From IMG/VR virus record IMGVR_UViG_3300020037_002148, positions 1-64,000 of that record: 64,000 nucleotides of DNA; one strand, 5' to 3'. Every line of letters starts with the position of its first letter. Positions within the stretch are counted from its first letter, which is position 1. The position numbers and the translations under genes were made by a program. Below the pieces are notes generated by a model, which saw only the letters and a list, made by a program, of their open reading frames with translations, did not search any database and was not told the DNA's origin. Below, one piece after another: positions 25,523 to 57,100 of this stretch. Source of the DNA: a virus. Lineage: Duplodnaviria; Caudoviricetes.

Positions 25523-28500
25523 ATGATAGAAGAATCTTTAGAAAAAGAAATGTTTAATGGAGATCAATTAGCAATTTCTGTATGGAAGTCAAAATATGCA
25601 GCAGAAGGAGAAACTCATTATAATCAAATGCATAAAAGACTTGCTAAAGAATTTGCAAGAATAGAAGATAGATATGTAAAAGAAGAAAGATTTAATCATG
25701 AATTAAATTTATCTAAATATGGTCAAGATAGAGAAAGATTAACTTATGAATCTATCTATGAATTATTTAAAGATTTTAAATACATAATTCCACAAGGAAG
25801 TATAATGTCTAATTTAGGTAATAAAGCAATTACTTCATTAAGTAATTGTTTTGTTATAGGACAACCTAGTGACAGTTATGGTGGTATATGTAAGAAAGAT
25901 GAAGAAATGGTTCAACTTATGAAAAGAAGAGGTGGTGTAGGATTAGATTTATCTACTCTTAGACCTGCTAAAACTTTAGTAAGTAATGCAGCTAAGACTT
26001 CAACAGGTGTTGTGTCTTTTATGCATAGATATTCAAATTCTACAAGAGAAGTTGCTCAGGATGGAAGACGAGGAGCTTTAATGCTTTCAATACACATTAA
26101 TCATCCAGATTCATTAGATTTTATCAAAATCAAAAGAGATTTATCTCAAGTAACTGGTGCTAATATATCTATTAAGATTTCAGAAGAATTCATGAAAGCT
26201 GTGGAAGATGATGATGATTATTGGTTAAGATTTCCATGTGATAATAAAAAAGTTATTATGTGGGATACTTCTTGGGAATATAATAAAAATTATGAATGTT
26301 TAGATGAAGAAAGCCAGGTTGTAATTGCTAAAAGAATAAAAGCTAAAGAATATTGGAATGAAATCATTAAATCAGCTCATGGTTCAGCAGAACCAGGAAT
26401 TATATTTGAAGATAATCATCACAATTACAGTCCTGATGGAGTATATCCACAATTCAAAGGAATTACAACAAATCCTTGTTTTCATCCAGATACATTAATA
26501 GAAACTGTAAACGGAAGAATTAAAATAAAAGATTTAGATTATCATAGTTTTGTTTATTCTAAAGATGAAGATGGTAGTTTATGTATTAAAAGAGCAAGTC
26601 CTTCTTTTATTTCTAAAACAAATGCTGAAACAATTAAAATTACTTTAAAATCAGGAAATTTTATTCAAATTACTCCAGAACATAAATTATATGTTCAAAA
26701 TAAAAATTGGATGGGTTGGAAAGAAGCAAAAGATTTGAAAATTGGTGATTCTATCGCACATTTATGTAGAAGTAGACGAGGAGCTAAATATTCAGGAGTA
26801 CATTTAACAACTTCTCCAAGTAGACAATTAGATCAAGTCATGGAACATAGGTTAGTATATGAAAGTTGTAACAAATTTACTACTAATGATATTCATCATA
26901 TTGATGGAAATACATTTAATAATAAAATATCTAATCTTGAAGAATTAACTCATGAAGAACATGCAAAACATACAGCAATAAATCAAAATCCTCAAACACA
27001 TCAGGTAAAAGATAAATTAGGAAGATTTATATCTGGTGAAAATTCTAAAAAAGGAGCTAAAACAATTATTAATATTCCTGATGAACTCAAAACTAATATG
27101 TTGAGTCAACATCATAATAGAATTATTTCTATTGAAAAAGGAGAAACTACAGATGTATATGATATTCAAGTAGAAGATACTCATTGTTTAATTGCAAATA
27201 ATATGGTAGCTCATAATTGTGGAGAAATCTTTATGCAAGAATATGATGCTTGTAGATTAATTGCTGTAAATTACTTTAGTTTTGTAGATAAACCATTTAC
27301 AAAAGAAGCTAAATTTGATTTTGAGAAATTCTACAAAATTAATTATGAAGCAATGAGATTATCTGATGATTTAATTGATTTAGAACTTGAACATATTGAT
27401 AGAATTCTTAGAAAAATATTAGAAGACCCTGAACCTTTTGAAGATAGAAGAACAGAGTTTGAACTTTGGACTAAAATTAAAGAAACTGCTACTGCAAGTA
27501 GAAGAACAGGTTTAGGATTTACTGCATTAGGAGATACTTTAGCTGCTTTAGGATTAAAATATGATAGTGATGAATCTTTAAAAATTATTGATAAAATAAT
27601 GCATACTAAGATGGGATCTGAATTAGATTGTACTATTGATTTAGCAATTTTAAGAGGTACATTTCAAGGTTGGGATTCAAACCAAGAATATAATATTAAT
27701 AGTCAATATGATGAATACGATATTGAACATTTAAATATTAAAGGTAAAAATGATTTTTATACTTTTATAGCTAATAAATATCCCAATCAAGCTGAAAAAA
27801 TGATTAAATATGGTAGAAGAAATATAAGTTTTTCAACTGTAGCTCCAACAGGTACAGTCTCAATAATGTCAGCTTCAACATCAGGGATTGAACCACTTTT
27901 CTCACCTTATTACTTTAGAAGAAAGAAAATTAATCCAAATGATGAAGGAGTAAGAGTAGATTTTACAGACCAAAATGGAGATAAATGGCAAGAATTTCCT
28001 GTATTACATCCTAAATTTAAAGATTGGTATATAATAAAAGCTCAATGTGAACATTGTACTCATGTAGCTTTAGAAGCTTTAGAAAGAGCAAGTAAAGAAC
28101 AATTAAAGGAAATATTTGAAATGTCTCCATATTATCAATCTACAGCTAATGATATAGATTGGGTAAAAAGAGTTGAAATTCAAAGTGTAATACAAAAATA
28201 TATTACTCATAGTATTTCATCTACTATTAATTTACCAAATACCGTAACTGAAGCTGAGGTAAGTGAAATTTACATGGAGTCTTGGAAGAAAGGTTTAAAA
28301 GGTATTACTGTTTATAGAGATGGGAGTAGAAGTGGTGTGTTAATTACTGAATCTACTAAAGATAAACAAACATTTGAATATAAAGATGCAGTTAAAAGAC
28401 CAAGAGAATTAGATGCTGATGTTCATAATATTACATTAAAAGGAGTTCATTATAAAGTGATAATTGGTTTATTAGATGATAAACCTTATGAAGTATTTTT

Positions 28501-28870
28501 TGATGAAACAGAAAATAAAATAAGTGGTAAAGGTATAATATTTAAAAAAGCTAGAGGAAATTATTTTTTTAAAAAAGATGATATTACTACTGATATTACT
28601 TCTAATATGACTGATGAACAAGTAGCCATATCAAGATTAGTTAGTACTAGTCTTAGACATGGAGCTTCTATACATTTTATTACAGAACAACTTTCTAAAT
28701 GTGATGGAGATATATTTTCATTTACTAAATCATTAGCAAGAGTGTTGAAGAAATATATTCCTGAAGGAACTAAGTCTACAATAACTTGTAATGATTGTGG
28801 TTCTGATGATGTAATATTTGAAGAAGGATGCTCCAAATGCAGATCATGTGGCAGCTCTAAATGCGGCTAA
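25523..28870 (+). CDS. nrdJ: Class II (B12-dependent) ribonucleotide reductase with intein and C-terminal Zn ribbon
   Basis: SNCFV, GGVGLDLS.LRP, GANIS, AEPG, TNP|CGE, APTGT and SGIEP motifs; terminal CxxC...CxxCxxC. Confidence 0.9.
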   Translation: MIEESLEKEMFNGDQLAISVWKSKYAAEGETHYNQMHKRLAKEFARIEDRYVKEERFNHELNLSKYGQDRERLTYESIYELFKDFKYIIPQGSIMSNLGNKAITSLSNCFVIGQPSDSYGGICKKDEEMVQLMKRRGGVGLDLSTLRPAKTLVSNAAKTSTGVVSFMHRYSNSTREVAQDGRRGALMLSIHINHPDSLDFIKIKRDLSQVTGANISIKISEEFMKAVEDDDDYWLRFPCDNKKVIMWDTSWEYNKNYECLDEESQVVIAKRIKAKEYWNEIIKSAHGSAEPGIIFEDNHHNYSPDGVYPQFKGITTNPCFHPDTLIETVNGRIKIKDLDYHSFVYSKDEDGSLCIKRASPSFISKTNAETIKITLKSGNFIQITPEHKLYVQNKNWMGWKEAKDLKIGDSIAHLCRSRRGAKYSGVHLTTSPSRQLDQVMEHRLVYESCNKFTTNDIHHIDGNTFNNKISNLEELTHEEHAKHTAINQNPQTHQVKDKLGRFISGENSKKGAKTIINIPDELKTNMLSQHHNRIISIEKGETTDVYDIQVEDTHCLIANNMVAHNCGEIFMQEYDACRLIAVNYFSFVDKPFTKEAKFDFEKFYKINYEAMRLSDDLIDLELEHIDRILRKILEDPEPFEDRRTEFELWTKIKETATASRRTGLGFTALGDTLAALGLKYDSDESLKIIDKIMHTKMGSELDCTIDLAILRGTFQGWDSNQEYNINSQYDEYDIEHLNIKGKNDFYTFIANKYPNQAEKMIKYGRRNISFSTVAPTGTVSIMSASTSGIEPLFSPYYFRRKKINPNDEGVRVDFTDQNGDKWQEFPVLHPKFKDWYIIKAQCEHCTHVALEALERASKEQLKEIFEMSPYYQSTANDIDWVKRVEIQSVIQKYITHSISSTINLPNTVTEAEVSEIYMESWKKGLKGITVYRDGSRSGVLITESTKDKQTFEYKDAVKRPRELDADVHNITLKGVHYKVIIGLLDDKPYEVFFDETENKISGKGIIFKKARGNYFFKKDDITTDITSNMTDEQVAISRLVSTSLRHGASIHFITEQLSKCDGDIFSFTKSLARVLKKYIPEGTKSTITCNDCGSDDVIFEEGCSKCRSCGSSKCG
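26477..27217 (+). mobile_element. Intein (247 aa) with HNH endonuclease, inserted before the catalytic Cys
   Basis: Begins CFHPDTL, block B TPEH, ends VAHN followed by C. HNH region EHRLV...IHHIDGNTFNNKISNL. Confidence 0.92.
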
Positions 28871-29063: not shown

Positions 29064-29315
29064 GTGGTATTAATTTTTTTAAATAAAATTATGATAATAT
29101 ATTTAAATAAACAGTATGGATTAAATGGTGAAACAATAAAATTCTTTCCATATTGTAAAGATAAAGTTGAAGAAGGTCATTATATAGTATATGGTGATTA
29201 TACTTTAGCTTGTATAAAAGAAAATGAATTTACTTTGGTAACTGATAATCCAAATGATTCTATACTTGGTTCTGATTTATTAAACAATGAATGGAAATTA
29301 TGGAAAAAGCTGTAA
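29064..29315 (+). CDS. Hypothetical protein (likely start at ATG 29091)
   Basis: ORF track. Confidence 0.55.
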   Translation: MVLIFLNKIMIIYLNKQYGLNGETIKFFPYCKDKVEEGHYIVYGDYTLACIKENEFTLVTDNPNDSILGSDLLNNEWKLWKKL

Positions 29316-30544
29316 ACATAGTAACAATAAAAGCAAAAATACCTTTATTTAAAGGTGATGATAAAGCTGAAAGAATAGAACTTATTCAATTAGAAGAAAA
29401 TGGTTTTGAATTAGTTTCTCAAAAAGATTTATACCAAGTAGGAGATAAAGCAATTTACTGTCAACCTGACTATTGTCTTAGTGATATACCTTTATTTGAA
29501 AGTTTTATAAGACCTAATAATAAGGATGGTAATCCTGATGAAAGTAAATCAATGCTCGGAAAAGTACGTGGATTACCAAGAAGAATCAGAGCTAAGAAAT
29601 TTAACTTTCACAAAGGAGATGGAATTTCTGTTTATAGTAATGGTATTCTACTTCCTATAAAAGAAGTAATGAATTATTTAAATATTCCTTTTAATAAAGA
29701 AGATAAAATATTTGATGTTGATTCTAATTTAACACAATTATTAAATATTACTAAATATGAAGAACCTGAAAGTAATTCAGGTCCTGGAGTAAAAGGTGGT
29801 AGTTCAATGGCTTTTCCACAAGGTATTATCAGAACAGATGAAGAGAATTTTAATAATTTAATTCATCATGTAGAGAAATTATTACCTTGTAGATTAATTG
29901 GAAGACAAAAGATTGATGGAAGTTCTATTACTCTTTGGTATAAAGATGGTAAATATGGAATTGCTTCAAGAAATTTAGGTAAACCATTAACTATTACAAA
30001 AGTTACAGGAAGAAGAAAACCTACTTTATGGGAACAATTTTTATCTATAAAAATAAATTCTATTATATTTTCTATGATTGGTTTTAATACTAAAATAGAT
30101 TTAAATATTTATAGTGAAGTAGAATCTGATAGTGATTTTGTTAAATATGGTAAACCTTATTTAAATAAATTAATTGAACATTGCGATGAATATAAAGTTA
30201 ATTTAGTACTACAGGGTGAACTTTGTGGTCAAGGTATGAAAGGAAGTGGGAATAAAAATAATCCTACTGCTAAAGAACCAACTGATATAATTTTCTTTAA
30301 TGTTTGTAAATATGAAAATCAATCTGTTAAATTATCTGAAGAAGATTTTGATTTATATTCTAATTCTTTAGAATTTAAAACACCAAAACTATATTTTGAT
30401 AGAGTATTTAATACTATAGAAGAAGTAAAACAAGAATGTGAATCTATCTTTAAATCTGAATTAATTGAAGGTATAGTTATTAGAGATGAAAATCACTCTT
30501 TCTCATGTAAAATGATGTCAAATGAATATGATTCAAAAAAATAA
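29291..30544 (+). CDS. RNA ligase, DRB0094/Rnl5-like
   Basis: N-terminal OB-like module; KIDGSS, QGELCG, EGIV and terminal K motifs. Confidence 0.85.
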   Translation: MEIMEKAVNIVTIKAKIPLFKGDDKAERIELIQLEENGFELVSQKDLYQVGDKAIYCQPDYCLSDIPLFESFIRPNNKDGNPDESKSMLGKVRGLPRRIRAKKFNFHKGDGISVYSNGILLPIKEVMNYLNIPFNKEDKIFDVDSNLTQLLNITKYEEPESNSGPGVKGGSSMAFPQGIIRTDEENFNNLIHHVEKLLPCRLIGRQKIDGSSITLWYKDGKYGIASRNLGKPLTITKVTGRRKPTLWEQFLSIKINSIIFSMIGFNTKIDLNIYSEVESDSDFVKYGKPYLNKLIEHCDEYKVNLVLQGELCGQGMKGSGNKNNPTAKEPTDIIFFNVCKYENQSVKLSEEDFDLYSNSLEFKTPKLYFDRVFNTIEEVKQECESIFKSELIEGIVIRDENHSFSCKMMSNEYDSKK

Positions 30545-31562
30545 AATAATTATATTAATCTTATTGCTATTTTCAATAAATAGTTTTAGTTGTCCTAAAA
30601 TAAAAGGAATATTAATTGATGCTTGTGGTACAAAAGAAGAATTAAATGAATGGATGGTATTAACAACAGATACAGCTATTATAGTTAATAATCTTAGAAT
30701 AGATTATGATGCTAATAACAATAGTGGTGGAACTGTAAATGCTGATATTACAAGTGGAGGATGTTCTTGGAGAGTTCCAAGAACTTCTTCTATTGATTCT
30801 CTTAAAATAAATAGTTTATATAATTCTAATATAATATCTATAAGTCCTGGAGGAACTATTCCTGCAAATTCTACTATTTTAGTATTAACTTCTGATAGTA
30901 TGAATTTTGCATATAATATTACTAATCTTACTCAATATGGAAATGTTTATGTTATTCAAAGTTCATGTAAAAGAAATACAGGAGCATTTACTAATTTAGG
31001 AAATGGAGCTAATTATAGATTAACTAAAATTATTTATAATACTTGTAGAGATAGTGTATGGCATTACATAGGAAACAGTGCTGTAAATGGACACTATGGT
31101 GTTAGAAATAGAGATACTATGAGAATTAGTTATGGTAATATTTTTACTTCTTCTTGTAATGAGTATATGATTCTTCCAATAGAATTAGTTTCTTTTATTG
31201 TAAATTGTGATCTAATAGAATTTATAACAGCTAGTGAGAATAATGTCAGAATGTTTTATATTGAAACATCTTTTAATACTATAGACTGGATAGTGATAGA
31301 TTCTTTACCACCAAGAAATTATAATAATACTCTAACTAATTATAGTGTTACAAATCCACATTTAGGACAATATTTTAGAATTAGAGAAGAAAATTTTGAT
31401 AATATTTTTTATTCTACAATGTATTATACTAAATGTGAACAGGATATAAAAGAGTATAAATTATATAATTTCTTAGGACAACAAGTAAATGAAAAAGACA
31501 ATCTTCCAAAAGGTGTATATATAAAGAGATTTAAAAATGAAAGTATAAAAGTAATTAAATGA
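30522..31562 (+). CDS. Secreted protein with signal peptide and a type IX secretion (type A) C-terminal domain
   Basis: Signal peptide ...ILLLFSINSFS; LPIELVSF module; C-terminus YKLYNFLGQQV...LPKGVYIKR...KVIK. Confidence 0.75.
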   Translation: MNMIQKNKIIILILLLFSINSFSCPKIKGILIDACGTKEELNEWMVLTTDTAIIVNNLRIDYDANNNSGGTVNADITSGGCSWRVPRTSSIDSLKINSLYNSNIISISPGGTIPANSTILVLTSDSMNFAYNITNLTQYGNVYVIQSSCKRNTGAFTNLGNGANYRLTKIIYNTCRDSVWHYIGNSAVNGHYGVRNRDTMRISYGNIFTSSCNEYMILPIELVSFIVNCDLIEFITASENNVRMFYIETSFNTIDWIVIDSLPPRNYNNTLTNYSVTNPHLGQYFRIREENFDNIFYSTMYYTKCEQDIKEYKLYNFLGQQVNEKDNLPKGVYIKRFKNESIKVIK

Positions 31563-31885
31563 CATCAGAAGAACAAATAAAACATGTAGTAAAATTAGAT
31601 AGTGATTTATTAGATATTATAGAATCTAAGTCAAATGATTATGCAGACGCAGATGTATTATCAAACTTTAAAATAGTTTCTGAAATAGTTAAATTAGCTA
31701 AAATAGATGCTACATTACCTGAAGGTTATGCTATGTTAATGGTTATACTTAAAATAGTTAGAATTTGGAATTTAAAATCAAGTGGTAAAACACCAGAGAA
31801 TGAATCATTATTAGATAGTTATAAAGATTTAATAAATTATTGTAAATTATCTTACTTATGTGAGATGGAAAGTAAATGTAATTAA
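31559..31885 (+). CDS. DUF1599/Nmad1-like protein
   Basis: K.NDYA..DVLSNF...K..R...DS..D..NY pattern. Confidence 0.6.
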   Translation: MTSEEQIKHVVKLDSDLLDIIESKSNDYADADVLSNFKIVSEIVKLAKIDATLPEGYAMLMVILKIVRIWNLKSSGKTPENESLLDSYKDLINYCKLSYLCEMESKCN

Positions 31886-31887
31886 TT

Positions 31888-32943
31888 ATGATATTGTATA
31901 AAAAAGATAGTAAAGAAAAAATTAGATTTCTTGAAATTAAAACAGAAGGTTCTGATTTAATTCAAATTTCTGGTATAATTGGGACTGATAATCCTGTAGA
32001 ACATAGAAAAACTTGTAAATCTAAAAATATCGGTAAATCTAATGAAACTAAATCAAGAGAACAAGCTATATTTGAAATGGAATCTAAAATAAAAGAAAAA
32101 CTTACAAAAAATTATTTTTATACTATTAAAGAATGTGAAACTGAAGAAGTAATACTCCCTATGTTAACTAAATCTTATGATGATGAAAAACATAAAATAG
32201 ATTGGAATAATTGTTTTATACAACCTAAATTAGATGGAATGCGTTGTTTAGCTCATATTAAATCTAATGGTGATGTTACATTAATTAGTAGAGATGGTAA
32301 AATTATTAGTAATATGGAACATATTATGGATGATTTATCAACTATTAAACAAGATGTTATTTTAGATGGGGAATTATATGCTCACGGATTAACTTTTCAA
32401 GAAAATATGAAGTTAATTAAAAAATGGAGGAAAGAAACTCCTGATTTAATTAAATTCCATGTTTATGATTTAATTAATGATAAACCTTTTAAAGATAGAA
32501 AAGTTAGAGAATTTATTAAAAATTTATCTACATGTAAAGAAGTTTCTACTTATGAAATTATTAATAAAGAAAAATTAGATTATTTTCATGCTATTAATAT
32601 ATCAGAAGGATTTGAAGGTAGTATAATAAGATGGGGGAATGAAGGATATAAAATGAATGGTAGAAGTTCTAATCTTTTAAAATTTAAAGATTTTAAAGAT
32701 ATGGATTTAGAAATATTTCAAATAACTTCAAATGATGCAAATCCTTTACATGGTACTCCTCATTTTAATTTAAAAGGTAAAGCATTTAAAGCTGGTGTTA
32801 AAATGTCTCATGAAGATAGAGAAGATTTATTAACTAATAAAGATAAATATATTGGTAAAATAGCTAACATAAGATATTTTGAATTAACAGATGAAGGTAT
32901 TCCGAGATTCCCAGTAATGATTGGAATTCATTCAGATAGATAA
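31888..32943 (+). CDS. lig: ATP-dependent DNA ligase
   Basis: QPKLDGMR, DGELY, EGSIIR, KFK and RFPV motifs. Confidence 0.92.
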   Translation: MILYKKDSKEKIRFLEIKTEGSDLIQISGIIGTDNPVEHRKTCKSKNIGKSNETKSREQAIFEMESKIKEKLTKNYFYTIKECETEEVILPMLTKSYDDEKHKIDWNNCFIQPKLDGMRCLAHIKSNGDVTLISRDGKIISNMEHIMDDLSTIKQDVILDGELYAHGLTFQENMKLIKKWRKETPDLIKFHVYDLINDKPFKDRKVREFIKNLSTCKEVSTYEIINKEKLDYFHAINISEGFEGSIIRWGNEGYKMNGRSSNLLKFKDFKDMDLEIFQITSNDANPLHGTPHFNLKGKAFKAGVKMSHEDREDLLTNKDKYIGKIANIRYFELTDEGIPRFPVMIGIHSDR

Positions 32944-32959
32944 AAAATAAATAAATAAA

Positions 32960-33736
32960 ATGAATAAAGAAAGGATATATAAAGTGGTATCAATAACTAT
33001 TATAGTAATATTAGTATTATTGAATTTAAAATCTTGTAAAAATACACAGGACACTAAAAAAGATTATGTAAATACGATTAATGCTTTACAAGATACAATG
33101 ACTACTTATTATAATAAAGATGGAATGCAAGTAGCTAAAATATCTGCAATTGAAACAGAAAAAGCAAGTATGTTTTTAGATATAAAATCTAAAGATGCTG
33201 TTATAATCAAACTTCAGGAAGAAGTAAAGAAGAATAAAAATAGGATAGGTAAGTCTGGTTCAGTTACAGTTATAACAAATACTACAGAATTAAATACTGT
33301 AGATACTACTTATGTTACATCAAAAGATACTATAGTTAGAAATGATACTGTCTTTGTATATCCTGAATATTCATCTTTTATTAGAAAAGGTTTAAGAATA
33401 GATTCTTCTTATTGGATAGAAGCTAATGTAAAAGCAAATAGAGATAGTACAAGTTTTGAGCTTGGAATTCAAAATAGTTATACTATTGTATTAGGCAGAG
33501 AAAAAGCTAAGAGTTTTAAGGGTTTATTTAAACCTAAGATAGCTTTTGCAGAAGTTACAAATGAAAACCCTTATACTACCACTAAAACTATAAGAGCTTA
33601 TCAAGTAAAAGTTCCTAGACCTAAAAGATTAGGAATAGGAGTGAATGTAGGATATGGAATCATCCTTGATAAAAAGCCTGTATTTAGACCTTACATTGGA
33701 ATTGGATTACAATATAATATAATAGAGATATTTTAA
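32960..33736 (+). CDS. Probable spanin-like lysis protein
   Basis: N-terminal TM helix, coiled coil, and C-terminal amphipathic beta hairpin GIGVNVGYG...YIGIGLQYN. Confidence 0.55.
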   Translation: MNKERIYKVVSITIIVILVLLNLKSCKNTQDTKKDYVNTINALQDTMTTYYNKDGMQVAKISAIETEKASMFLDIKSKDAVIIKLQEEVKKNKNRIGKSGSVTVITNTTELNTVDTTYVTSKDTIVRNDTVFVYPEYSSFIRKGLRIDSSYWIEANVKANRDSTSFELGIQNSYTIVLGREKAKSFKGLFKPKIAFAEVTNENPYTTTKTIRAYQVKVPRPKRLGIGVNVGYGIILDKKPVFRPYIGIGLQYNIIEIF

Positions 33737-34836
33737 TGGAAAATTTATTATCTAAAGAAGAATTTATTGTAGATTGTATTAATAAGTCAAATGGAGAAAG
33801 ACAAGAAGTATATAAATGGTTAGTTGAAGAAAGAAATTACAGTAGTGCATATTATCTAAGAAATACTTATCCTGTTATAGTTTGTAATTTATCAAGTGGT
33901 GATAGTAATTTTACTAGTTTATTAGATGCTCTTAATAATTATCCAAACTATCCAGTATATACATTTGAACAATTTAAAAATAAAATAAATCAAAAACAAG
34001 AATTTAAAGGAATGAAAAAAACAATGTTAGATGTCTTAGAAAAGACATATGAAAATCCAATACTTAGAAAAAGTACAGTGCCCTTATTCATGTCAAATCC
34101 TGGAATTGGTAAAACAACTATCATTAGAGAATTTGCAGAAAGTAAGGGTGTAAAAATGCTTAAAATGACTCTTAGTCAAAGAATGCCTAATGAAGTAGTA
34201 GGTATGATGATGCCTAATATGAAATCAGGTAAACTTGAAGTATTTGATAGTTATGAACTATCATCTTTAAAAGATGGAGATATTTTATTTATTGATGAAG
34301 TATTTAATGGTACTTTAAAACAAACTTTAGATGCTTTTTTAAATCTTTTAGAAGATAGAACTTTACCAAGTGGTAAAAAAATGGCTGATATAATGATTGT
34401 AGGAGCTTCTAATCCACAAGGATTAATTAATCTCACACCTCAAATTAAAGAAAGATTTATTAGATATGATCCAAAATTCTCAAGAGAAGAGTATCAAGAA
34501 TATCTTGGTTTAAAATATGGAATGCCTGAAAGTATATCACTTAATTTGTGTACATTAATTCGAAAAGAAAAATTTGAAGATGGTTGGAATTTTCATACAC
34601 CAAGATCTATTGAAAAAGCAATTAATCAAATTGGTTGTGAATTAGAAAGTGCTCTTGATGAAGTTTTACTTCCATATTTAAAACAAGAAATACAACTTGA
34701 AAAAGACTATAAAGATTTAAATTATAAAAAAGGAGAAAATATAGAATATTTAACTATATTAAAACATTTTTGTAAAATATTTAATAAAAAATCTATAAGT
34801 ACTTTAATTAAAACAGAGTTAGAAAATGCTCAATAA
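33736..34836 (+). CDS. MoxR-like AAA+ ATPase with an extra 92-aa N-terminal domain (internal ATG 34012)
   Basis: SNPGIGKT, FIDE, ASNP and R-finger ERF motifs. Confidence 0.85.
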   Translation: MENLLSKEEFIVDCINKSNGERQEVYKWLVEERNYSSAYYLRNTYPVIVCNLSSGDSNFTSLLDALNNYPNYPVYTFEQFKNKINQKQEFKGMKKTMLDVLEKTYENPILRKSTVPLFMSNPGIGKTTIIREFAESKGVKMLKMTLSQRMPNEVVGMMMPNMKSGKLEVFDSYELSSLKDGDILFIDEVFNGTLKQTLDAFLNLLEDRTLPSGKKMADIMIVGASNPQGLINLTPQIKERFIRYDPKFSREEYQEYLGLKYGMPESISLNLCTLIRKEKFEDGWNFHTPRSIEKAINQIGCELESALDEVLLPYLKQEIQLEKDYKDLNYKKGENIEYLTILKHFCKIFNKKSISTLIKTELENAQ

Positions 34837-34846
34837 AAAATAAAAA

Positions 34847-35788
34847 ATGTTACAAAAAATAATATCAAAAAAAGTAGAATTACCTCCTATCTGGTTAGTT
34901 GAAAATGAAGCTGACTTTAATGAGTTACCTAAAGGATTACCTTATATAATAGGTAGTAAAAAAGAATTATCATTTATTACAATCTTTTTAGAGTTTCAAC
35001 TTTTAATGAGATCTTGTAAAAAAACAAAATTATCAATTGATTGGTTATCTTGTTTAGAAAAATTAGGGTATAAAAGAATTAGAACTTATAGTTTAAATTC
35101 AGGTGGTACTTTTGAAGGAGGTAATCCTGTAGATAATAGTCCTATACCATTAGATTCTTTTATAGAAGATCAATATTTAGTAGATTTTGATAAATTAACT
35201 GAATTGAAAATTTTACCTTCTTGGTTAGAAGATTTAAGAACTTCTATTGAAACTAATATAATTGATGAAGTGACTTTTAATCCAAGTAGTTTTAACAAAC
35301 AATTAGGAATGAATATTGGAGGTGCTGATTTAAAGCACAACAAGAAAAATTTATTAATACTAGATGTATCAGGTAGTATTCCTGATGGAATTGTAAAAAC
35401 AATTACAAATTTAGCAAAATTAATGTCTAAAAAGTTTTTTGCAGATGTAATTATTACAGGTGGTCAATCATATATTGTAAATTATGAAGATGTACAAAAT
35501 TCAGATTTCGTTGCACTAGCTGCAAAAGCAGGTAGAAATAATGAAGGTGAAATGTTTAAAAAAATCTTAAATGAAATTAAAGATTATAATAGTGTAATTT
35601 GTTTTGGTGATGATGATAATCCTGGTAGATTTGACAAATCAAGTCAAAATATTAAATGTAATTTCACTTGTGAAACTCTTTATTCATTACATACAAGTAG
35701 CTCATCATCATTAGCAGGTTATTGTAGAGAATTAAAACCTACAAAATCAACAATCCATGTAAAAGATTGGGTTACTACTATTAAATAG
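34847..35788 (+). CDS. vWA-domain protein (partner of the AAA+ ATPase)
   Basis: MIDAS LILDVSGS, later FGD; adjacent to the AAA gene. Confidence 0.8.
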   Translation: MLQKIISKKVELPPIWLVENEADFNELPKGLPYIIGSKKELSFITIFLEFQLLMRSCKKTKLSIDWLSCLEKLGYKRIRTYSLNSGGTFEGGNPVDNSPIPLDSFIEDQYLVDFDKLTELKILPSWLEDLRTSIETNIIDEVTFNPSSFNKQLGMNIGGADLKHNKKNLLILDVSGSIPDGIVKTITNLAKLMSKKFFADVIITGGQSYIVNYEDVQNSDFVALAAKAGRNNEGEMFKKILNEIKDYNSVICFGDDDNPGRFDKSSQNIKCNFTCETLYSLHTSSSSSLAGYCRELKPTKSTIHVKDWVTTIK

Positions 35789-45396: not shown

Positions 45397-46137
45397 TTAA
45401 TTATTATTTATTTTGTCCCAAAGATAAACTCTTGATTTTTTATACAATATATTTTCTATTTGCTTACCTAACTTATATTTTTCTCTTATCTCTTTAACAG
45501 ATAAACCATTAATTCTATCTTTTATAGCTTCTATTAATAATTCATCAGAATATTTAGTTAAATGTCTTGACTGTATTTTTGTATTATTAATTAAATGCTT
45601 CTCTTCATCAGGAATAATATAATCAGAAACATCCACCCAAGTTCTATGAGATTTTATACTTTGTATTGTGTTTTGCGCTACATTAAACATTTTAGATATT
45701 TCTAAAGCAGTTTTATTGTAAGCAATTAATTTTTTAATTTCAGTTACCTGGTCTTTATTTAGTATATATCTTCCATTTTCAACTCTATTTTCCTTATCTT
45801 CTTTATGTTTTTTAGAAATAGATTTACTTAAATTTTCAAATCCTTTTGTTTTTATATATTTACCTGCTTTTTTACATATATTAAAAGGAGGGTTTAAATT
45901 GTCTAAAAACCATTGTTCTAATTTTACTAAATATATATCTGGGCAAATTGCTATTATTTCAAATTTAAAATTATTAATTCCATGCTTATTATAACTATTT
46001 TGTAATTTAATTGAAGAATGTTTGTTTCTTTTTAATTGATTAAAATGTTGCCATTCTCTGTTTTTTAAATTACAAGAACTACCAATATAAAATTTATTAT
46101 TTACAAGATTAGTTATTTTATATATACCGCTTAACAT
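45397..46137 (-). CDS. Free-standing GIY-YIG homing endonuclease
   Basis: SGIYKITNLVNNKFYIGSS; C-terminal HTH-like repeats. Confidence 0.9.
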   Translation of the reverse strand: MLSGIYKITNLVNNKFYIGSSCNLKNREWQHFNQLKRNKHSSIKLQNSYNKHGINNFKFEIIAICPDIYLVKLEQWFLDNLNPPFNICKKAGKYIKTKGFENLSKSISKKHKEDKENRVENGRYILNKDQVTEIKKLIAYNKTALEISKMFNVAQNTIQSIKSHRTWVDVSDYIIPDEEKHLINNTKIQSRHLTKYSDELLIEAIKDRINGLSVKEIREKYKLGKQIENILYKKSRVYLWDKINNN

Positions 46138-48165: not shown

Positions 48166-51100
48166 TTATGATTTTAATGAATAACATTTTTTGGTTTTAT
48201 CTTCTATTTCTTGTTTACTTTTCCCTGCTTTAACCATAAAGTTATTAGCAACTCTTTCTAATTCCTCAATAGTTCTATTTTTAGTGCCTTCTAAAGTTAC
48301 TTTAGTTATTGCTGAATATTGATTAATTAAATTAATAAAATTTAATCTTACTTCAGTTTCATCTTTAGCTTTTTCCTTAGTTTTATTAAACATATTCATT
48401 TTCACTTTCTCTGTTTGTTCAGGTGAAAGTACCATGTCTAATTGATCTTTAATACTATTAGTTAAAGAAGATATTTCACCACTACCTAATATAATATGTT
48501 GATTATATAATGCTTTAGTTCCTTCAATATAACCATTTTCAAATTGATTAGCAATAGCTTTAGCTATATTTACTAATCTTTCTCTACCATTTTTATATGT
48601 TTTTAATTTAGCATCATTATTAATAATCTCATAAATAGTATTATTAAATAAATCACCATAATAAATATCACCTTTTAAAGATTCTTTACTTGAGTTACTA
48701 AGTTCTAGCACTTTACCTTCAGGTGATATTTGAAAATTAATCCAACTACCATCAACTTGAATACTATCTTGTACAGCAGTTAATTTTAAAGGTATTCTAG
48801 CACTATTTTTACCAGATAAATAAGTTATTATAGGAAATCCTATTTTACTATAAGGAATAATTTTATCACCTGATTTATATGTTTTAGCTATTTTTTTAAA
48901 TATAACTATTTCATCTCTTAAAATAAATTTTTTATTTTCTTTTTTAATTTGAGATTTTTGTTCAGGTTTCATTCCTTTAGTAATTCTTGCAAATTGATTT
49001 ACTACTAAAGTGTTATTTTTACTATCAAAGAATATAGGGTAATTATCTTCCAATACTAACTCCTCTTTTTCATTAGTATCACTTTCATTATCATTTACAA
49101 AATCCTCACTTTCAATTTTATTATCTTTAATCCATTTTTCATCAATTACTTTTCTTAGAACATCAATCTTTTGAGATTTTAAATCAAAGTAATTATTTTG
49201 ATTTAATCCAAATTTAATTATAAAGTCTAAATTCAATTCTTCTTTAGACATTCCAAAAGTTTCTATATATTCTTTACTGGAACTCATTTTACTGAATAAT
49301 TCTTGAACTTTATCTAAAGCATTTGAAGTTTCAGTAAATAATATAGGATCAATAGCTTTTATAAAAGATTGATTTTGAAACATTAAACCATCTTTAACTA
49401 CAAGATATTTAAACATATCCTTAGCAAATTTAGTTTTAAGAGTATTAATTCTTCTAATTTCAGGATCTCTTTCTAAGATATTATTATTTTCTGCAAAATA
49501 TAAATCATTAAAACTCGAAATTATACTTGAAATAATATCTGGATTTTTTAAAGCTCTTGAATTAGCTCCAAAACCATGAAATCTATAACCAAATAAAGTA
49601 TTTTTATTTGCTTGTTTTTTAAGATAATCAATATTTTTTATTTCAAGAAATTCTAAGAAATCATTTTTAATTCCATTTTTATAATTATATTCAATTATTT
49701 GTAAGAAATTAGTTTGTAATTCATTATTCTCTTTAGTGTTATCTTTAGCAATTTCTTCTAAAGGAGTTAATAAAAATTCTTCAATTTTAGGAAGTTTATC
49801 ATCAGTATTTTTAACACTTTCAGCATAAGCCATCACTGTTAAATATGATAAATAATGTTTTCTTAAATTACTTTGAAAATCAACATTACCTGCTTTATAA
49901 TCTTTAAATAAAGTAAGTATATCTTCTCTTGTTTTTTTAGCTGTTGGAGTTTGAGATATAAAATACTTTTCACTTAACTTAGTTAAAGCTAAAGCTGTTT
50001 TAATAGATTGTTTTAAGAATTTATCTTTTTCAAAAATATCACCAACACCATTTCCAATTATCTTAGTAGTATCTTTATAATTTTTATAAAATTTATCAGT
50101 AGGTTTATCATTTTTTACAATATCTAAACCATTTTCACTAACACTCCATCCTAAATTATTTAAAGCTGTAATAAACTTTTCAGATTCTGCAAATGTGCTT
50201 TTAAAACCTTTAATTAATTGTAATAAATTTTGCAGATTACTAAATACAGTAGATGCTTTTTTATAATGGAAATATTCATTAGAGATTCTTTTTAAAATAG
50301 CTTTTTGATTACTTACAGGTTTTTCTTCTTGAGAAAATAAATCTTTTTGTTCTTGATAGTCACCAAATCTTTCTTTAAATTGTTGTTCATTAGAAATATC
50401 TTGACCACTTTCATTTCTAAAAGTCCATCCTTTAGGAGCTAATATTAGTGTAGGTAAATTTAATTTAAATCCTGCTTTAGCTCCTGCTTCATCTAAACCT
50501 GTTTGTCCTCCAGTTCTAATTCTTTCTATTGGATTTTCTAAATCAGGTGAACTTAAAACAGCTTGTAATAATTCATATACATAATCATCTAATTGCTCTT
50601 GAGTATATTTACCTTTCATAGTATATATACCATTACCAGCAATGTTTAAAGTCTTAGCTTTAGTTTCATTTAATTGTTCTACAATATTATCAACTATTTC
50701 TGGAGTTACTTCTAAAGAGTCTTTAATATCAATAGGAATATATTTTTTACTTTGTCCTTCAACAGAAGATTTAGTTAATCTTTCACCAGCACTTGTAAAA
50801 TCTACTGCAATAGCTATTGTAGCATCAGCAGAAGCGTTTTTAATAGTTCTTTGTTTATAACCTGTAGATTGTTCTTCTAAAAAAGTAATTCCTTTAGAAA
50901 ATTCTTCTTTAATTACTTCTTTATTTTTCAAAGAATCCAATAAAGTTTGATAATTTAAATCTCCTTCAAATTCAGATTCACCTTCTAATTGAAATATACT
51001 TTCTACTTTCTTCTGTAATTCTCTATTTCCTTTACTATCATCATAATCTTGTTTAGATTGAATAGTTTTATTATATGATTGAGATAATTCAGAAATCTTT

Positions 51101-54100
51101 TTAACAATTGGAGATTTCATTAATAACATTACATTATTAAAATTATGACCTACACCAATCATAGCTAAAGCTACAGGAAGTGTTTCAGTAGTTAAATTAA
51201 ACAGATTAGCCATTTGCTCTTTAGCATTATCAGTCATTGCTGCTAATAATGTAGCTATACTATCTTGAACTCTTTGAGCATCTTTTTCATCTACTAATTT
51301 ATTATTTTCATCTCTTGAATAATTAACAAAAGGTTCTAAATTAATCTTTTCACCTACTTTTCTTTCAATAGTTACTTTATTTTTAAATAATATTCCAAAG
51401 AGATTATTAAACAAAGCTACTGGTCCAATATTAGCAGCTCCTGTTGAAATAGATATGTCAGCAAGAGTTTTAGAAAGCATATCATGTACTCCATATCCTA
51501 AATCTTTATTAATTAATCCTTCTCCTTCAAGAGTTTCAATTAAATCTTTAAATAATTTAAGACTTGTAGGTGTATTAGTTATTTTATTATTACCATCATT
51601 ATTAATTAGCTTTCTTTCTAATTCTAATAACATATTATTAGTTTCTCCTTTTGTTAAAGGTTCTATACTATCTATATTACCAGATTGATAAGCAATATAA
51701 TTACTTTCAATTACATCTTTATTTTTATAAGTCCATTCTCCTTTATTGAATATAATTTTATTAATAATGAAAGATTGTTCTAATAAAGTTAATTCTAAAG
51801 ATTTAATTTCATCAATGATACCTAATAATTCAGAAGTAGCTGGTTTTACTAATTGTTCTCTAGTAAATACATTTGGTATTTCTTTAACTTTTCTTAAACT
51901 ATTTTCAGCAATAGTTTTTTCTCTGGTTAATTCAATTAATTCTTTACTATTAGTTTTTAAATCATTAAATGTAGAAGATATTTTTTTATTATCATAAGCA
52001 TCAGATAAATATTCATTATATGCTTGTTCTTTAGCTTCTTCCAAAGTTGATTGAAATAAATAACTACCATATATTCCTGTTTTTTTATTTAAAACATTTG
52101 TATAAGTTTGATTTACTCTTACATATAAAGCATCAATATCAAAGTCAGCTCCAGATAATTCAACAATTTCATTTGGTAACATAATTGCATTACCATAACT
52201 ATCAGGTAGTATATCTACTATTTTACAATTAATCATAGAGTGTTTATCTTCTGTTGGAATTCTGACTCCAGATATATATAAAAATTCTTGAGGTATTTCA
52301 CCTTTGTGAAATTGATCTGCTGTAAATCCAAATTTCTTTAAGAATCTTTCACTTACTACAATTTCAGAATAATATTCATGTTTTTCTTTATCATAAACAT
52401 CATGTCTTAATCTTTGAGAAACAATATTAGCTCCTCTTGGTCTATTATCTCCTTTAGATTGTCTAGTAGTGAATGTTTTAATTACATTACCTTCATTATC
52501 AATTTCTCTCTCTAATTCACTACCAACACTTGACATTAAAGATAATTTAGAACCAGCAACTTTTTGTTTAAGTGTACCACCACTAACAAAAGAAAGGAAC
52601 ATTGATTGAAATTTAGTTTCAATTGCAGGATTATTTAAATTGTATTTAGGTTTGCTACTATTTCCTTGTTGAAATAATTCTAGTTGTTGAGGATCAGCAG
52701 ATGATTTTTCAATTGAATCTATAAAACTTTTTAAAAGTAAATCCCATTCAGCATCTCCATTTTCATCTAACATCTCTTTTTTAAGAGCTTTAAATCCTTT
52801 ATCAGTTCTTTCAGCTAATTGTTTTTCATAAACATTTAATGCAGTACCAATATTTATTTCTTTATTTTTAAAATAAATTAAAGTTTCATTTATTTGTTCA
52901 GTAGAAATTAATCTTAAAAATTGAGTAGGATGTGTTATTTGTTTTTTAACTCCATCAGTTTTTTGTTGATCAATTAAACTTGCATTTGGTACAGAAATTG
53001 ATGAAATAACTTTTTTACCATTTTCATTTTTATATAAAAAAGGTTGCCCATTACTAATTTCATGTATATTGTATTTACTTCTTTTCCAAGCACTATCATA
53101 TACTGCAATAGCATTATTTAATTCCAGTTCATTTAATAAATTATGTTTATATTCTTTACCAGGGATAGCTTCAAATAAATTCTGATATTTTTTAGTTAAA
53201 TAAGTAATATAAGCATTATCAGAAGGTGATGCTTGTAATTTCAAATCAAATAGTTCTTTATGTATTAGAAGAGCTTCTTTAAGATTTTCTTTTGAATAAT
53301 TTTTTAATCTTGAAGTTGTTTCTCTTAAAATTGGAGAAATTGAAGTTTTTAAATACCAATCTAAACCAAAACCTTGTGTTTTATTAGGTTGGTGTTGTGC
53401 ATTATTATCATAGAGGTAATCATAATCTTCTTTAGTTATTTTTTGTAATTCACCTTCACTATTTATATAATAATTTAAGCCACTATCAATTCCTTGATAT
53501 ATTTCTTTAATTCTATTATCAATTGATTTAGAATTTAGAATAACTGATAAATGATGAAAAGGAGTATTGAATGTTTGAGCATCTGTAGTATCAATTTTAT
53601 TTACTACTTCAGATCTAATAGGGATTATATTTGTAACTCCACTACCATAATTAGAACCACTACCAATCATACCTTTAGCTCTTTTTACAAAGTCATTAGC
53701 GTTTTTACTAGATGTAGCATTGTCTCCATACATTAAAGAATTAATACCATAAGACATTAAATAGTCATTTAAAAAAGCATTTTTTAAAGCATTTTTATCT
53801 AATTGATTTCCAGAAATAAAAGATTTTGGTAATAAGTTAACTTCACCCTCTTTAAGAAGACCTTTATCTTCTAATAATTTAATATATTCGTCAACTTGAA
53901 AATCAATAAAATTAGATAATCTTTGTTTAATTTCTTCTTCAGAAAGATCTTTTTCATTTAATTTAGTATTTTTATTAGCAAAGTTAAATAACTTTAATCC
54001 TTTTGGTATTAAACTATTTAAATTAATTTCTTTTTTTATTGTAGAACCATCCTCTTGTTTTTCATTATAATATAATTCTTCTTTAGATAGGTTTACAACA

Positions 54101-57100
54101 TTATTATTATTATCAATGTCTAAATAGAAATAAGTTCCATCACTATGTGTAAATATTTTAACTGATTTATTACCATTAGTGCCTTCTACACCAATATTTT
54201 GTAACATATAATGAAATCCTTCATTATATCCATCTTTCTTAAAACCTAAATAATATTCATCTATTTCACTTTGAACAATTTTAATTCTCTCTACTTCTTG
54301 ATTATATATAGAATATAAGGAATTCAATCCTTTTTCATTAATTTTACCTTTTTCAATAAAATTATTAAAAGGTAATAATACCATTGGTATAGTAGATGCA
54401 CTTTCATATTGAGAAGCTATATAATAAGCATATTTTTGTTTACCTACAACTTTTAAATTATATTTATTATAAGCACTATCAGCTAAAAGACTTAATCTAT
54501 ATAATATTTTAGCAGTAGTATCAGCATTATTATAACTTTTACCATCACTATCAGAAAATAATCCATAATTTTTAGAAGATACATCTACATCTTCACTATC
54601 TTCATACTCAGTTACATTAGTTTCTTCTTGTCTAATACCTCCAGCATAAGCCATAGTTAAAGTGGTAAATAAAGTATCAATATCTACATTATTAAATAGA
54701 GGATTATGATCTAACACTTGTAAAAAATTATCTACTTGATATTCTTCTGTAAAGAAACTATATAAATAATATGTACCATTTTCTTCATTATTTAATACTT
54801 TATCTTTAAATGTTTTAACATCTTTTGTTTCAAGATATTCTTTAATTAATTGAACATTATCTTTATCTTTTAATATATTTAATCTTCTTGAAATATCAGA
54901 AGGTGGTGTAATATCAAATATTCTTTTACCTTCTTGATTATTAAATGAAGATGGAATTATACTTGTATCAAATAAAGCTGTACTTTCAGCTACATCCATT
55001 AATTTACCAACAGCTCCTAATAAAGGTTCTGCTTTTTGAGTGGCAGGGTCTATATCATTATATATAGTGTTAGTTCCAAAACTAATACCTGTAGTTAATG
55101 TTTTTTCAATACCATCTAAAAATTCTAAATTAATAGGTTTTATATCACTTGCTGAAAAATTATTATACCAATTTATTTCTTCATTTGTAAGTAAATTAGT
55201 ATTTCCTGTTTCAAATACAAAGTTTATTAGATTGTATTTAATAAATTGTTCAGGTAATTCAATACCTAAATCAGAAAATGAACTTTTGAAAGTATTCACT
55301 AAAGCAATTACAGCTTCACTTTTTTCTTGTGATTTAAGTGATTTTGTATTTTCTAATAAATCTACATATTTTTGTAAAATATTATCTATATTACTTTTAT
55401 ATAAATTTGCTTTAAAATCAATTTTAGCTTGTTCTAAATTGTCAATTCTTTTAGAATTCCAATTTCTTTCCCATCTACTAAATACTTGTTTACCAACATT
55501 TCTATTATTAGCATTTAACATTCTGGTTACACCTTCTTTAGAAAATAATACATCTTGTAAATAAGTTCTATTTTTTTCAAAATCAGAAGATATAAAACTA
55601 AATGTAGGTGATTTAGTTAATATTTTATAATATAAAGGACTTAATATTTCATATAATTTAGCAAAATCTTCAACATTAATTTCAGGTAATTCAAAACTAT
55701 TATTTTTCTTTAATTCACTATAAATATCTTTATACCATTGATGTGTAAATGCTTTAATTTCAGGAGAAGTATTAGAAACAGAATATAATAATCCTAAATG
55801 TTTATAAGCTGGAGCACCAACTAACATTTTTGTTAAATTAGAATATAAATGATTTCCGTTAATAGCAAAACTATAATTTTTACTTTTATCATTAACTATA
55901 TAATCATCAAATGGTTTTCCAATGCCAAATAAATCAATATTTGTACTCACTGAGGAAATATATTGCTTTACTTTTTTAGATGCTTTATCCCAAGCATGAT
56001 TAATTTCATTTTTACTTTTTTGAACAATTCCTGTATCATTTAATTCATCATCTTCTAAATCATCACTATCATCTAATTGTTCTTGTAAAATAGAAGATTC
56101 ATTTACAAGATTATATAAAGGAAGTCTTTCAAAAACTTCTTGAACTACTATTTCTTGATTTTTTAAATTTCCTAAACTTTTATATACATTTAAATATTTT
56201 GAAGCTGTCTTATTTGCTAAATCATCATCTTTAATAGAATCAATTAAATCAGCAATAACTTCATTATTAGGGTTAAATCTCTCTCTAAATAAATCATAAA
56301 TATCACTAATTTCATCATCAGTAATAATTTTTGATCCTTTATTTTTTAATATTTTAGCAGCTTCATTTGTAATTGTGTTAATGATAGCTTCAGATATTGA
56401 ATAACTTAAATATCCTTTTTTATCTATATATTTACCATTAGTTAATTTAAGTTTATATTCTTGTACTAAAAGTTTATTTACATCAATAGAATTATTGACA
56501 TTTCTAATTACAGGAAATTTCTCTTTAGCATTTTTAAATTTACCTTGATAAATATCTGAGAATAATTGTGTTACAGCTCTTTCATTAGATGTATTATTTT
56601 TATCAAATATCCCTTTTAATAAATTCTTTATTCTTTCAAAGATTCTTCTTAACCATGATTGTGTTACAGATTTTTCAGCTTTCATATACTCCATAAAAGC
56701 ATCTGCCATTTTTTCTTCTAGCCAAAGATTTTTTAATTCTTGTTGAGATAAATTAATTAAATCAGAAGATGATTCTTTTAAGGTTTGTAATTGTTCTTTA
56801 GTTGGTGTGCCATATAAAGATTCAGCACCATTAAGAGTTTTAATAATTCTACCTCTATCAAGCATTAATCTAAATACAGCATGAAAAGCTTCATGATATT
56901 CAAAACCTTTTACAGATTTACCATTTTTAGTAGCAAGATATATAGTTTTTAATTTACCTATAAATCTACCACCTACTTCACCTTTAGTTTTAAGGTTTCC
57001 GAGTATATCAATTAAATCAGTAACTTCAATAGTTCCATTAGGATTATCTTGAGTTTTAATAGGGAGTATTTGAGATAGATTTTTGATTGCAGTATTATAC

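Follow-up and report, generated by a model that had tools for sequence, protein, structure and literature searches.

In Cryophage, Bellas et al. 2020 (Nat Commun) described type A sorting domains in the products of three phage genes and suggested that the phage hijacks its host's type IX secretion system (T9SS) (PMC7468147). The type A C-terminal domain (CTD) is built from two sheets, beta4-beta3-beta6-beta7 and beta5-beta2-beta1, and its beta3-beta4 loop and C-terminus are functionally relevant (PMC11285876). A conserved, functionally important lysine has also been described for type A CTDs (PMC10994853). Here, we analyze a phage gene located at 30522-31562 (+) in the first 64,000 nucleotides (hereafter, the window) of the IMG/VR virus record IMGVR_UViG_3300020037_002148 (Caudoviricetes), whose 346-aa product ends in roughly half of such a domain. 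Our reading, which we hold tentatively, is that this product is an exported envelope protein from the lineage of T9SS cargo proteins, and that its tail may still be used by the host T9SS.

A preliminary description of the window had called the gene a phage-encoded substrate of the host T9SS. The open reading frame (ORF) is indeed present with all motifs quoted at that time: DACG...NEW at residues 33-44, LPIELVSF at residues 218-225, and YNFLGQQV...LPKGVYI...KVIK at residues 315-346. The following features were assigned:

30522..30590, + strand: Sec-type signal peptide, residues 1-23 (sequence inspection, hydropathy, family alignment)
30591..31166, + strand: Cys-rich beta-sandwich head, residues 24-215, with six invariant Cys (AF2 model, alignments)
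31167..31448, + strand: LPxEL FN3/Ig-like module, residues 216-309, between the invariant Cys229 and Cys305 (AF2 and VIA-align)
31449..31559, + strand: shortened tail resembling a T9SS type A CTD, residues 310-346, 37 aa (HMM, independent profile, AF2; HMM, hidden Markov model)
31560..31562, + strand: stop codon, overlapping the ATG of a DUF1599 gene

The C-terminal unit and its relation to T9SS cargo

The tail retains beta3-loop-beta4 (YNFLGQQV), beta6 (LPKGVYIKRF) and beta7 (SIKVIK), i.e., motifs B, D and E. When the segments kept are compared with the published topology, the phage tail preserves one sheet together with both functionally relevant motifs and has lost the other sheet. It comprises approximately 35-40 residues of a domain that normally spans about 80, and hence it is not a whole CTD. 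With the C-terminal 52 aa taken in isolation, the T9SS sorting domain ranked first in both curated libraries, and the HMM alignment spreads 40 residues across model positions 18-71.

As an independent measure, a CTD profile of 84 nodes was built from 30 unrelated CTDs, taken as the last 82 aa of the 30 cellular ORFs carrying the LPxEL motif. This profile scores the window tail at 14.4 bits, a value that none of 2000 composition-matched shuffles reaches (mean 0.0, standard deviation 3.0, maximum 11.9); the best of 57 other window ORF C-termini obtains 3.7 bits. Nodes 28-44 (EYKLYNFLGQQVNEKDN) and 60-72 (LPKGVYIKRFKNE) are aligned, while nodes 1-27 and 45-59 are absent. The likeness of the tail to T9SS CTDs is thus beyond chance. 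Of the compact C-terminal domain named in the preliminary description, the CTD motifs stand, while the domain as such shrinks to about half a CTD.

The AF2 model shows the tail as four short strands at 313-345 with a pLDDT of about 85. Across approximately 25-30 relatives, residues L318, G319, Q320, L328, G331, Y333, K335, and K343 show no or almost no variation, while identity in the remainder of the C-terminal unit falls to 28-60%. K343 may correspond to the conserved lysine of type A CTDs.

Ahead of the tail, residues 220-311 match many FN3/Ig-like domains at Z 8-9 (VIA-align with the AF2 model mff6a73f26186), and no Pfam model covers the LPxEL module. Searching with the C-terminal unit of the window protein gave matches at E<=1e-4 in 25 of the 401 Bacteroidota genomes sampled. 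From LPxEL to the stop, every one of the 30 motif-bearing cellular ORFs has 169-196 aa, consistent with the module followed by a full CTD. The window protein has 130 aa, other short-tail proteins have 123-144 aa, and members of the P0044 and P0038 groups have 152-158 aa. The earlier statement that LPxEL..F accompanies type A cargo is in good agreement with the cellular ORFs, where the motif precedes a full CTD in 30 of 30 cases. The module thus genuinely accompanies type A CTDs, but it forms a separate penultimate domain and does not belong to the signal.

Cellular loci L010-L048 (e.g., L020 and L021) give the module the appearance of an undescribed constant penultimate domain of one T9SS cargo class. 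A related-locus search with the cellular protein P0143 alone yielded LPxEL+CTD units and nothing else, from other Bacteroidota and from Ignavibacterium.

A word-indexed search recovered 43 metagenomic proteins, mostly 50-97% identical to the window protein, two of which sit on IMG/VR contigs; with the C-terminal unit as query, it found close relatives only. On a separate 53.9-kb viral contig, the homolog L002 is again located directly downstream of an RNA ligase, and this member of a long-tail branch passes TIGR04183 with 24.6 bits. Several proteins of approximately 395-402 aa (P0043, P0143, P0167, and P0178) are collinear with the phage protein from end to end, with 22-29% identity, and score 36-47 bits for PF18962. 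P0143, annotated as 'T9SS type A sorting domain-containing protein [Flavobacteriales bacterium]', is encoded on a 1.47-Mb contig. A profile including the cellular PF18962 homologs matches solved CTDs, among them the F. johnsoniae CTDs 8GLK_D and 8GLJ_D, which were trapped in the translocon (E ~2e-5). Descent of the protein from a Bacteroidota T9SS cargo is very probable. It is homologous to cellular type A cargo over its entire length, and a captured host gene, as had been suggested before, is the parsimonious reading.

Members of the family are mosaics. P0030 matches the window protein with 93% identity in the head and about 35% in the FN3 module and tail, and the mosaic patterns of P0030 and P0035 versus the window protein indicate recombination near the LPxEL boundary. 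C-terminal units are exchanged among family members, and all of these units nevertheless terminate in a CTD-like tail. The compact tail is also found behind unrelated passenger domains (P0163, P0188, P0168, P0169, and P0170) and in two huge uncultured phages, LR756502 and LR745206, while a third huge phage, LR756500, encodes the LPxEL module with a full CTD (32.7 bits). For P0163, P0168, and P0044, which combine the short tail with other heads, no relative was detected in the viral contig collection.

The notion of a strictly phage-only compact tail had to be discarded in view of the cellular protein L054 from genome G034, which displays the same beta4-to-beta6 spacing, a classic signal peptide, and an isolated tail scoring 24.0 bits. 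Genome G034 encodes SprA (647 bits).

Two relatives deserve separate mention. In LR745206 (635 kb), the locus L051 (LR745206.1 40173-45520, reverse complement) contains a 428-aa frame constituting a signal-peptide passenger, and at about 2423-2459 the LPxEL module and compact tail follow in another frame with an overlap of approximately 36 nt, the cause being frameshifting, recoding or faulty assembly. P0029, a homolog with 62% identity, is labelled as originating from a 'Methanobacteriaceae archaeon' metagenome-assembled genome at NCBI; given the phage context of the family, its source is probably a mis-binned phage contig.

Signal peptide, head domain and phage context

The Sec-type signal peptide noted earlier is confirmed by inspection and hydropathy and is conserved in the family. 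A basic n-region is followed by a hydrophobic core at residues 9-17 (hydropathy KD 4.0) and a c-region N-S-F-S, after which Cys24 follows, and the family alignment reveals an identical n-/h-/c-region layout across all members. Cys24 is one of eight cysteines in the 346-aa protein, every one of which is invariant in the family. Cellular homologs show A-Q-C at the end of the signal peptide, which fits signal peptidase I (SPase I); cleavage by this enzyme before Gln is the usual pattern in Bacteroidota. We assume with good confidence that the protein is Sec-exported.

The head is the best-conserved part of the protein, with a mean major-residue frequency of 0.85 versus 0.65-0.69 for the C-terminal parts, and with 69-97% identity across the family. 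Its AF2 model (m92fa46771a87) reaches a pLDDT of 85.9 and a pTM of 0.87. Fold matches obtained by VIA-align are weak and comprise lamin-tail Ig-like domains as well as archaeal flagellin/FlaF sandwiches at Z 6.2-6.4; the lamin B1 Ig-like domain 7DTG (Z 6.3, root-mean-square deviation 3.1 over 103 residues) is tied with the flagellin/FlaF sandwiches. Foldseek likewise relates the head only weakly to lamin tails (E 0.02-0.1), and applied to the whole chain of the 346-aa protein it returns generic multi-Ig matches only. A protein atlas places the head in the LTD cluster (0.86), which is taken as a lead only, and PF00932 (LTD) does not match residues 1-213 at E<=10. We read the head as a putative non-enzymatic, LTD-like binding or adhesin domain. 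Matches of PE-PGRS_C/PecA and GerPB to the head (Pfam/NCBIfam) were weak, far under the cutoffs, and were rejected.

An exhaustive search for homologs at E<=0.001 yielded 367 proteins, mostly large. The nearest cellular relatives of the head are 35-46% identical; the proteins are 700-3900 aa long, and the domain is usually found around residues 90-300. Of nine large head relatives that were scanned, six terminate in the type B T9SS signal CHU_C, and the names of such proteins include 'gliding motility-associated-like protein'.

Concerning the host, the 1466-aa structural protein of the phage matches 39 deposited phages at about 31% identity, 29 of them Flavobacterium phages and seven Cellulophaga phages. 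The best match is Fpv1 (Caudoviricetes; Fipvunavirus), whose host is Flavobacterium psychrophilum. The T9SS is present in both genera, Flavobacterium and Cellulophaga. Because of these structural-protein matches, a Flavobacteriia-like host with a T9SS is likely.

The complete record comprises 78,987 bp (completeness about 77%, GC about 25%). Replication and nucleotide metabolism genes occupy the + strand up to approximately 40.4 kb, and structural genes the - strand from there on. The ATG of the ORF overlaps the 3' end of the preceding RNA-ligase gene (29291-30544; PF09414), and its stop overlaps the ATG of the next gene, DUF1599 (31559..31885). Due to the latter overlap, no more CTD sequence is encoded 3' of the ORF. 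An ATP-dependent DNA ligase gene (31888-32943) lies two genes 3' of the ORF, such that the placement among ligase genes is as it had been described. The gene is best regarded as an early- or middle-region phage gene.

A PF18962 search of the whole 79-kb phage genome returned nothing, i.e., no second cargo was detected. The 346-aa protein has no family match in PHROGs, and among deposited phages (50,697 genomes) no relative was found by megablast of the region or tblastn of the protein.

Further genes in the window merit a brief record. At 32960-33736 (+), two genes downstream, a 258-aa product represents a second probable envelope protein, with an N-terminal hydrophobic segment ending in L-K-S-C, which is lipoprotein-like, and a C-terminal DUF6808 (PF20647, 31.4 bits). 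Next come genes for a MoxR-type AAA ATPase (33736-34836) and for a partner of 313 aa (34847-35788). The ribonucleotide reductase ORF at 25523-28870 (+), 1115 aa, contains an apparent intein-like insertion with an HNH-like motif, extending approximately from ...NPCFHPDTLIE... to ...VAHNC.... On the - strand, 48166-62541 forms one ORF of 4791 aa without a sequence match among solved structures (PDB sequences), and a GIY-YIG/HNH homing-endonuclease-like gene is located in the same block at 45397-46137. A 676-aa ORF of this phage has no phage match.

Alternative fates of the protein

If the tail is functional, the protein would be exported by Sec first, and the compact tail would then engage the host T9SS (PorV/SprA), such that the infected Flavobacteriia-like cell displays the head on its surface or releases it. 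A displayed head could mask, or compete with, phage receptors of the adhesin type. An adhesin head combined with a sorting tail would make the protein a candidate for remodelling of the infected-cell surface, either for superinfection exclusion or for shielding progeny from debris; superinfection exclusion, receptor masking and jamming of the T9SS had been put forward as possible roles in the preliminary description. Such a role is plausible since phage resistance in Flavobacterium maps to gliding and T9SS genes: mutants in the T9SS or in gliding resist phages broadly, and the secreted adhesins SprB and RemA are presumed receptors (PMC9804748; bioRxiv 10.1101/2020.10.02.323337). That the protein is really handled by the T9SS is a claim we make with reserve. 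From its original designation as a T9SS substrate, the homology to type A cargo and the signal peptide can be kept, while the tail stays below the PF18962 and TIGR04183 thresholds.

Several observations weigh against a working tail. Scoring with PF18962 and TIGR04183, a check that had been recommended at the outset, gives no match on the full protein at E<=1, and the isolated tail obtains 16.6 bits with PF18962 (cutoff 27) and 16.6 bits with TIGR04183 (cutoff 23). A profile of the short-tail family members alone finds no solved CTD in the PDB at E<=10, the single tail hits 8GLK_D only at a non-significant E of 0.71, and with beta1, beta2, and beta5 one entire sheet is missing, i.e., three of seven strands and about 45-50 residues. 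(PDB matches of the short tail to neuropilin/discoidin, E 0.17, and to a leucine-rich repeat 'LPKGVF' were dismissed as noise.) Characterised CTDs consist of 59-108 residues in seven strands, and in RgpB, secretion is blocked by a point mutation that disturbs the packing of the CTD (PMC11285876); moreover, the CTD is bound by the translocon in its folded sandwich form, with burial of about 40% of the CTD surface (PMC10994853). A tail as short as that of the phage protein occurs in none of the 30 cellular LPxEL ORFs, and the tail of the cellular L054 probably retains beta1-beta2 and so is no exact match. The sub-threshold scores, the lost sheet, the intact CTD fold demanded by the literature, the absence of so short a tail from the cellular set, and an AF2 model that confidently gives four short strands only are what would be expected of a relic that is no longer a secretion signal and is conserved for folding, e.g., as a four-stranded sheet packed on the FN3 module. 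We consider such a relic possible, if rather doubtful; one version of it would have the tail dock to PorV/SprA without being translocatable, and thereby act as a plug or decoy of the T9SS. It is difficult to reconcile with mere folding, however, that the residues kept and conserved are recognition-linked motifs and no random subset of the domain, and that C-terminal units are swapped in the family yet always leave a CTD-like tail at the end. The compact tail on L054, an exported cellular protein from a genome with a T9SS, and the relative L002 that passes TIGR04183 point in the same direction. A more far-reaching proposal, which we regard as unlikely, is a minimal T9SS tag in Bacteroidota phages: a single four-stranded sheet (beta3-beta4-beta6-beta7, approximately 35-40 residues) resting against the LPxEL FN3 module would suffice for PorV/SprA docking, and would constitute either the smallest natural export signal yet seen or a non-translocatable translocon plug. 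It draws support from the recurrence of the same compact tail after different passengers in the phage family, in the two huge phages and in several metagenomic proteins, and from the full CTD that 30 of 30 sampled cellular LPxEL proteins have instead.

Two further explanations dispense with the T9SS altogether. Signal peptidase II might cut before Cys24 and leave a lipoprotein anchored in the envelope, independent of the T9SS. The residues preceding this cysteine vary: the window protein has S-F-S-C, some members have F-G-C or L-G-C, and others S-Q-C. An invariant Cys directly after the hydrophobic core fits a lipoprotein, and L-G-C and F-G-C resemble a lipobox; S-Q-C or A-Q-C, however, found in many family members and in all cellular homologs, place at -1 a Gln that is unfit for a lipobox. 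The eight invariant cysteines form an even set, suggesting four disulfides that include Cys24. The P-K-I-K after Cys24 is basic and not acidic, and the surface-export signal of Bacteroidota lipoproteins is acidic. On balance, lipid anchoring is improbable. Even less credit can be given to the view that the protein is no exported accessory at all, but either a constituent of the virion, such as an Ig-like decoration or a piece of a fibre, or the product of a functionless, decaying passenger gene. Ig-like and FN3-like domains are common in virion decoration proteins, and the lack of a PHROG family match would suit this view; yet the signal peptide is clear, the gene lies in the + strand replication and nucleotide-metabolism arm, away from the structural genes on the - strand, and its coding sequence is tightly coupled to both neighbour genes. 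Decay is contradicted by about 40 intact homologs of 50-97% identity with a strongly conserved head.

We return to the exported T9SS cargo relative as our tentative reading. If the tail works, the T9SS type A signal is narrowed to one CTD sheet, which bears on what the translocon reads, and a very small secretion tag for engineering of Bacteroidota would become available. If it fails to work, the gene represents one more captured host gene.

Comparison with known systems

The phage protein shares its head domain with large type B (CHU_C) gliding-associated cargo, the class of SprB-like adhesins. These proteins extend over 700-3900 aa and combine numerous Ig-like or PKD-like repeats with a C-terminal CHU_C, whereas the phage protein consists of the head and a type A-style C-terminal unit only. 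In cellular type A cargo with head, LPxEL module and PF18962, such as P0143, the same three modules follow the signal peptide in the same order, and the invariant Cys starts the head. The differences lie in the C-terminal unit, with 174-185 aa from LPxEL to the stop and CTDs of 38-58 bits by the independent profile in the cellular proteins, compared with 130 aa and 14.4 bits in the phage protein.

With the solved type A CTDs (RgpB 5AG8/5HFS, HBP35 5Y1A, and F. johnsoniae RemZ/NucA in the SprA-PorV translocon 8GLJ/8GLK), the phage tail has in common the beta3-beta4 loop, the G-x-Y strand, the K-x-x C-terminus, and the extreme C-terminal position. The solved domains are 3+4-strand sandwiches of 59-108 residues, whereas the phage tail contains segments of the four-stranded sheet only, in about 35-40 residues, and has no significant direct sequence match to them.

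The closest phage counterpart is the cargo of Cryophage (PMC7468147). In both cases, genes of Bacteroidota phages encode host-style secreted proteins with a type A tail, passenger and tail parts vary among phage variants, and a T9SS hijack, perhaps with a role in superinfection or competition, has been proposed. The Cryophage genes, however, were recognised through standard type A sorting-domain annotation, and their passengers are enzymes or PA14 (PMC7468147), whereas the protein described here has a non-enzymatic beta-sandwich head and a tail of about half a CTD that remains below curated thresholds. Phage-encoded T9SS cargo is thus already known.

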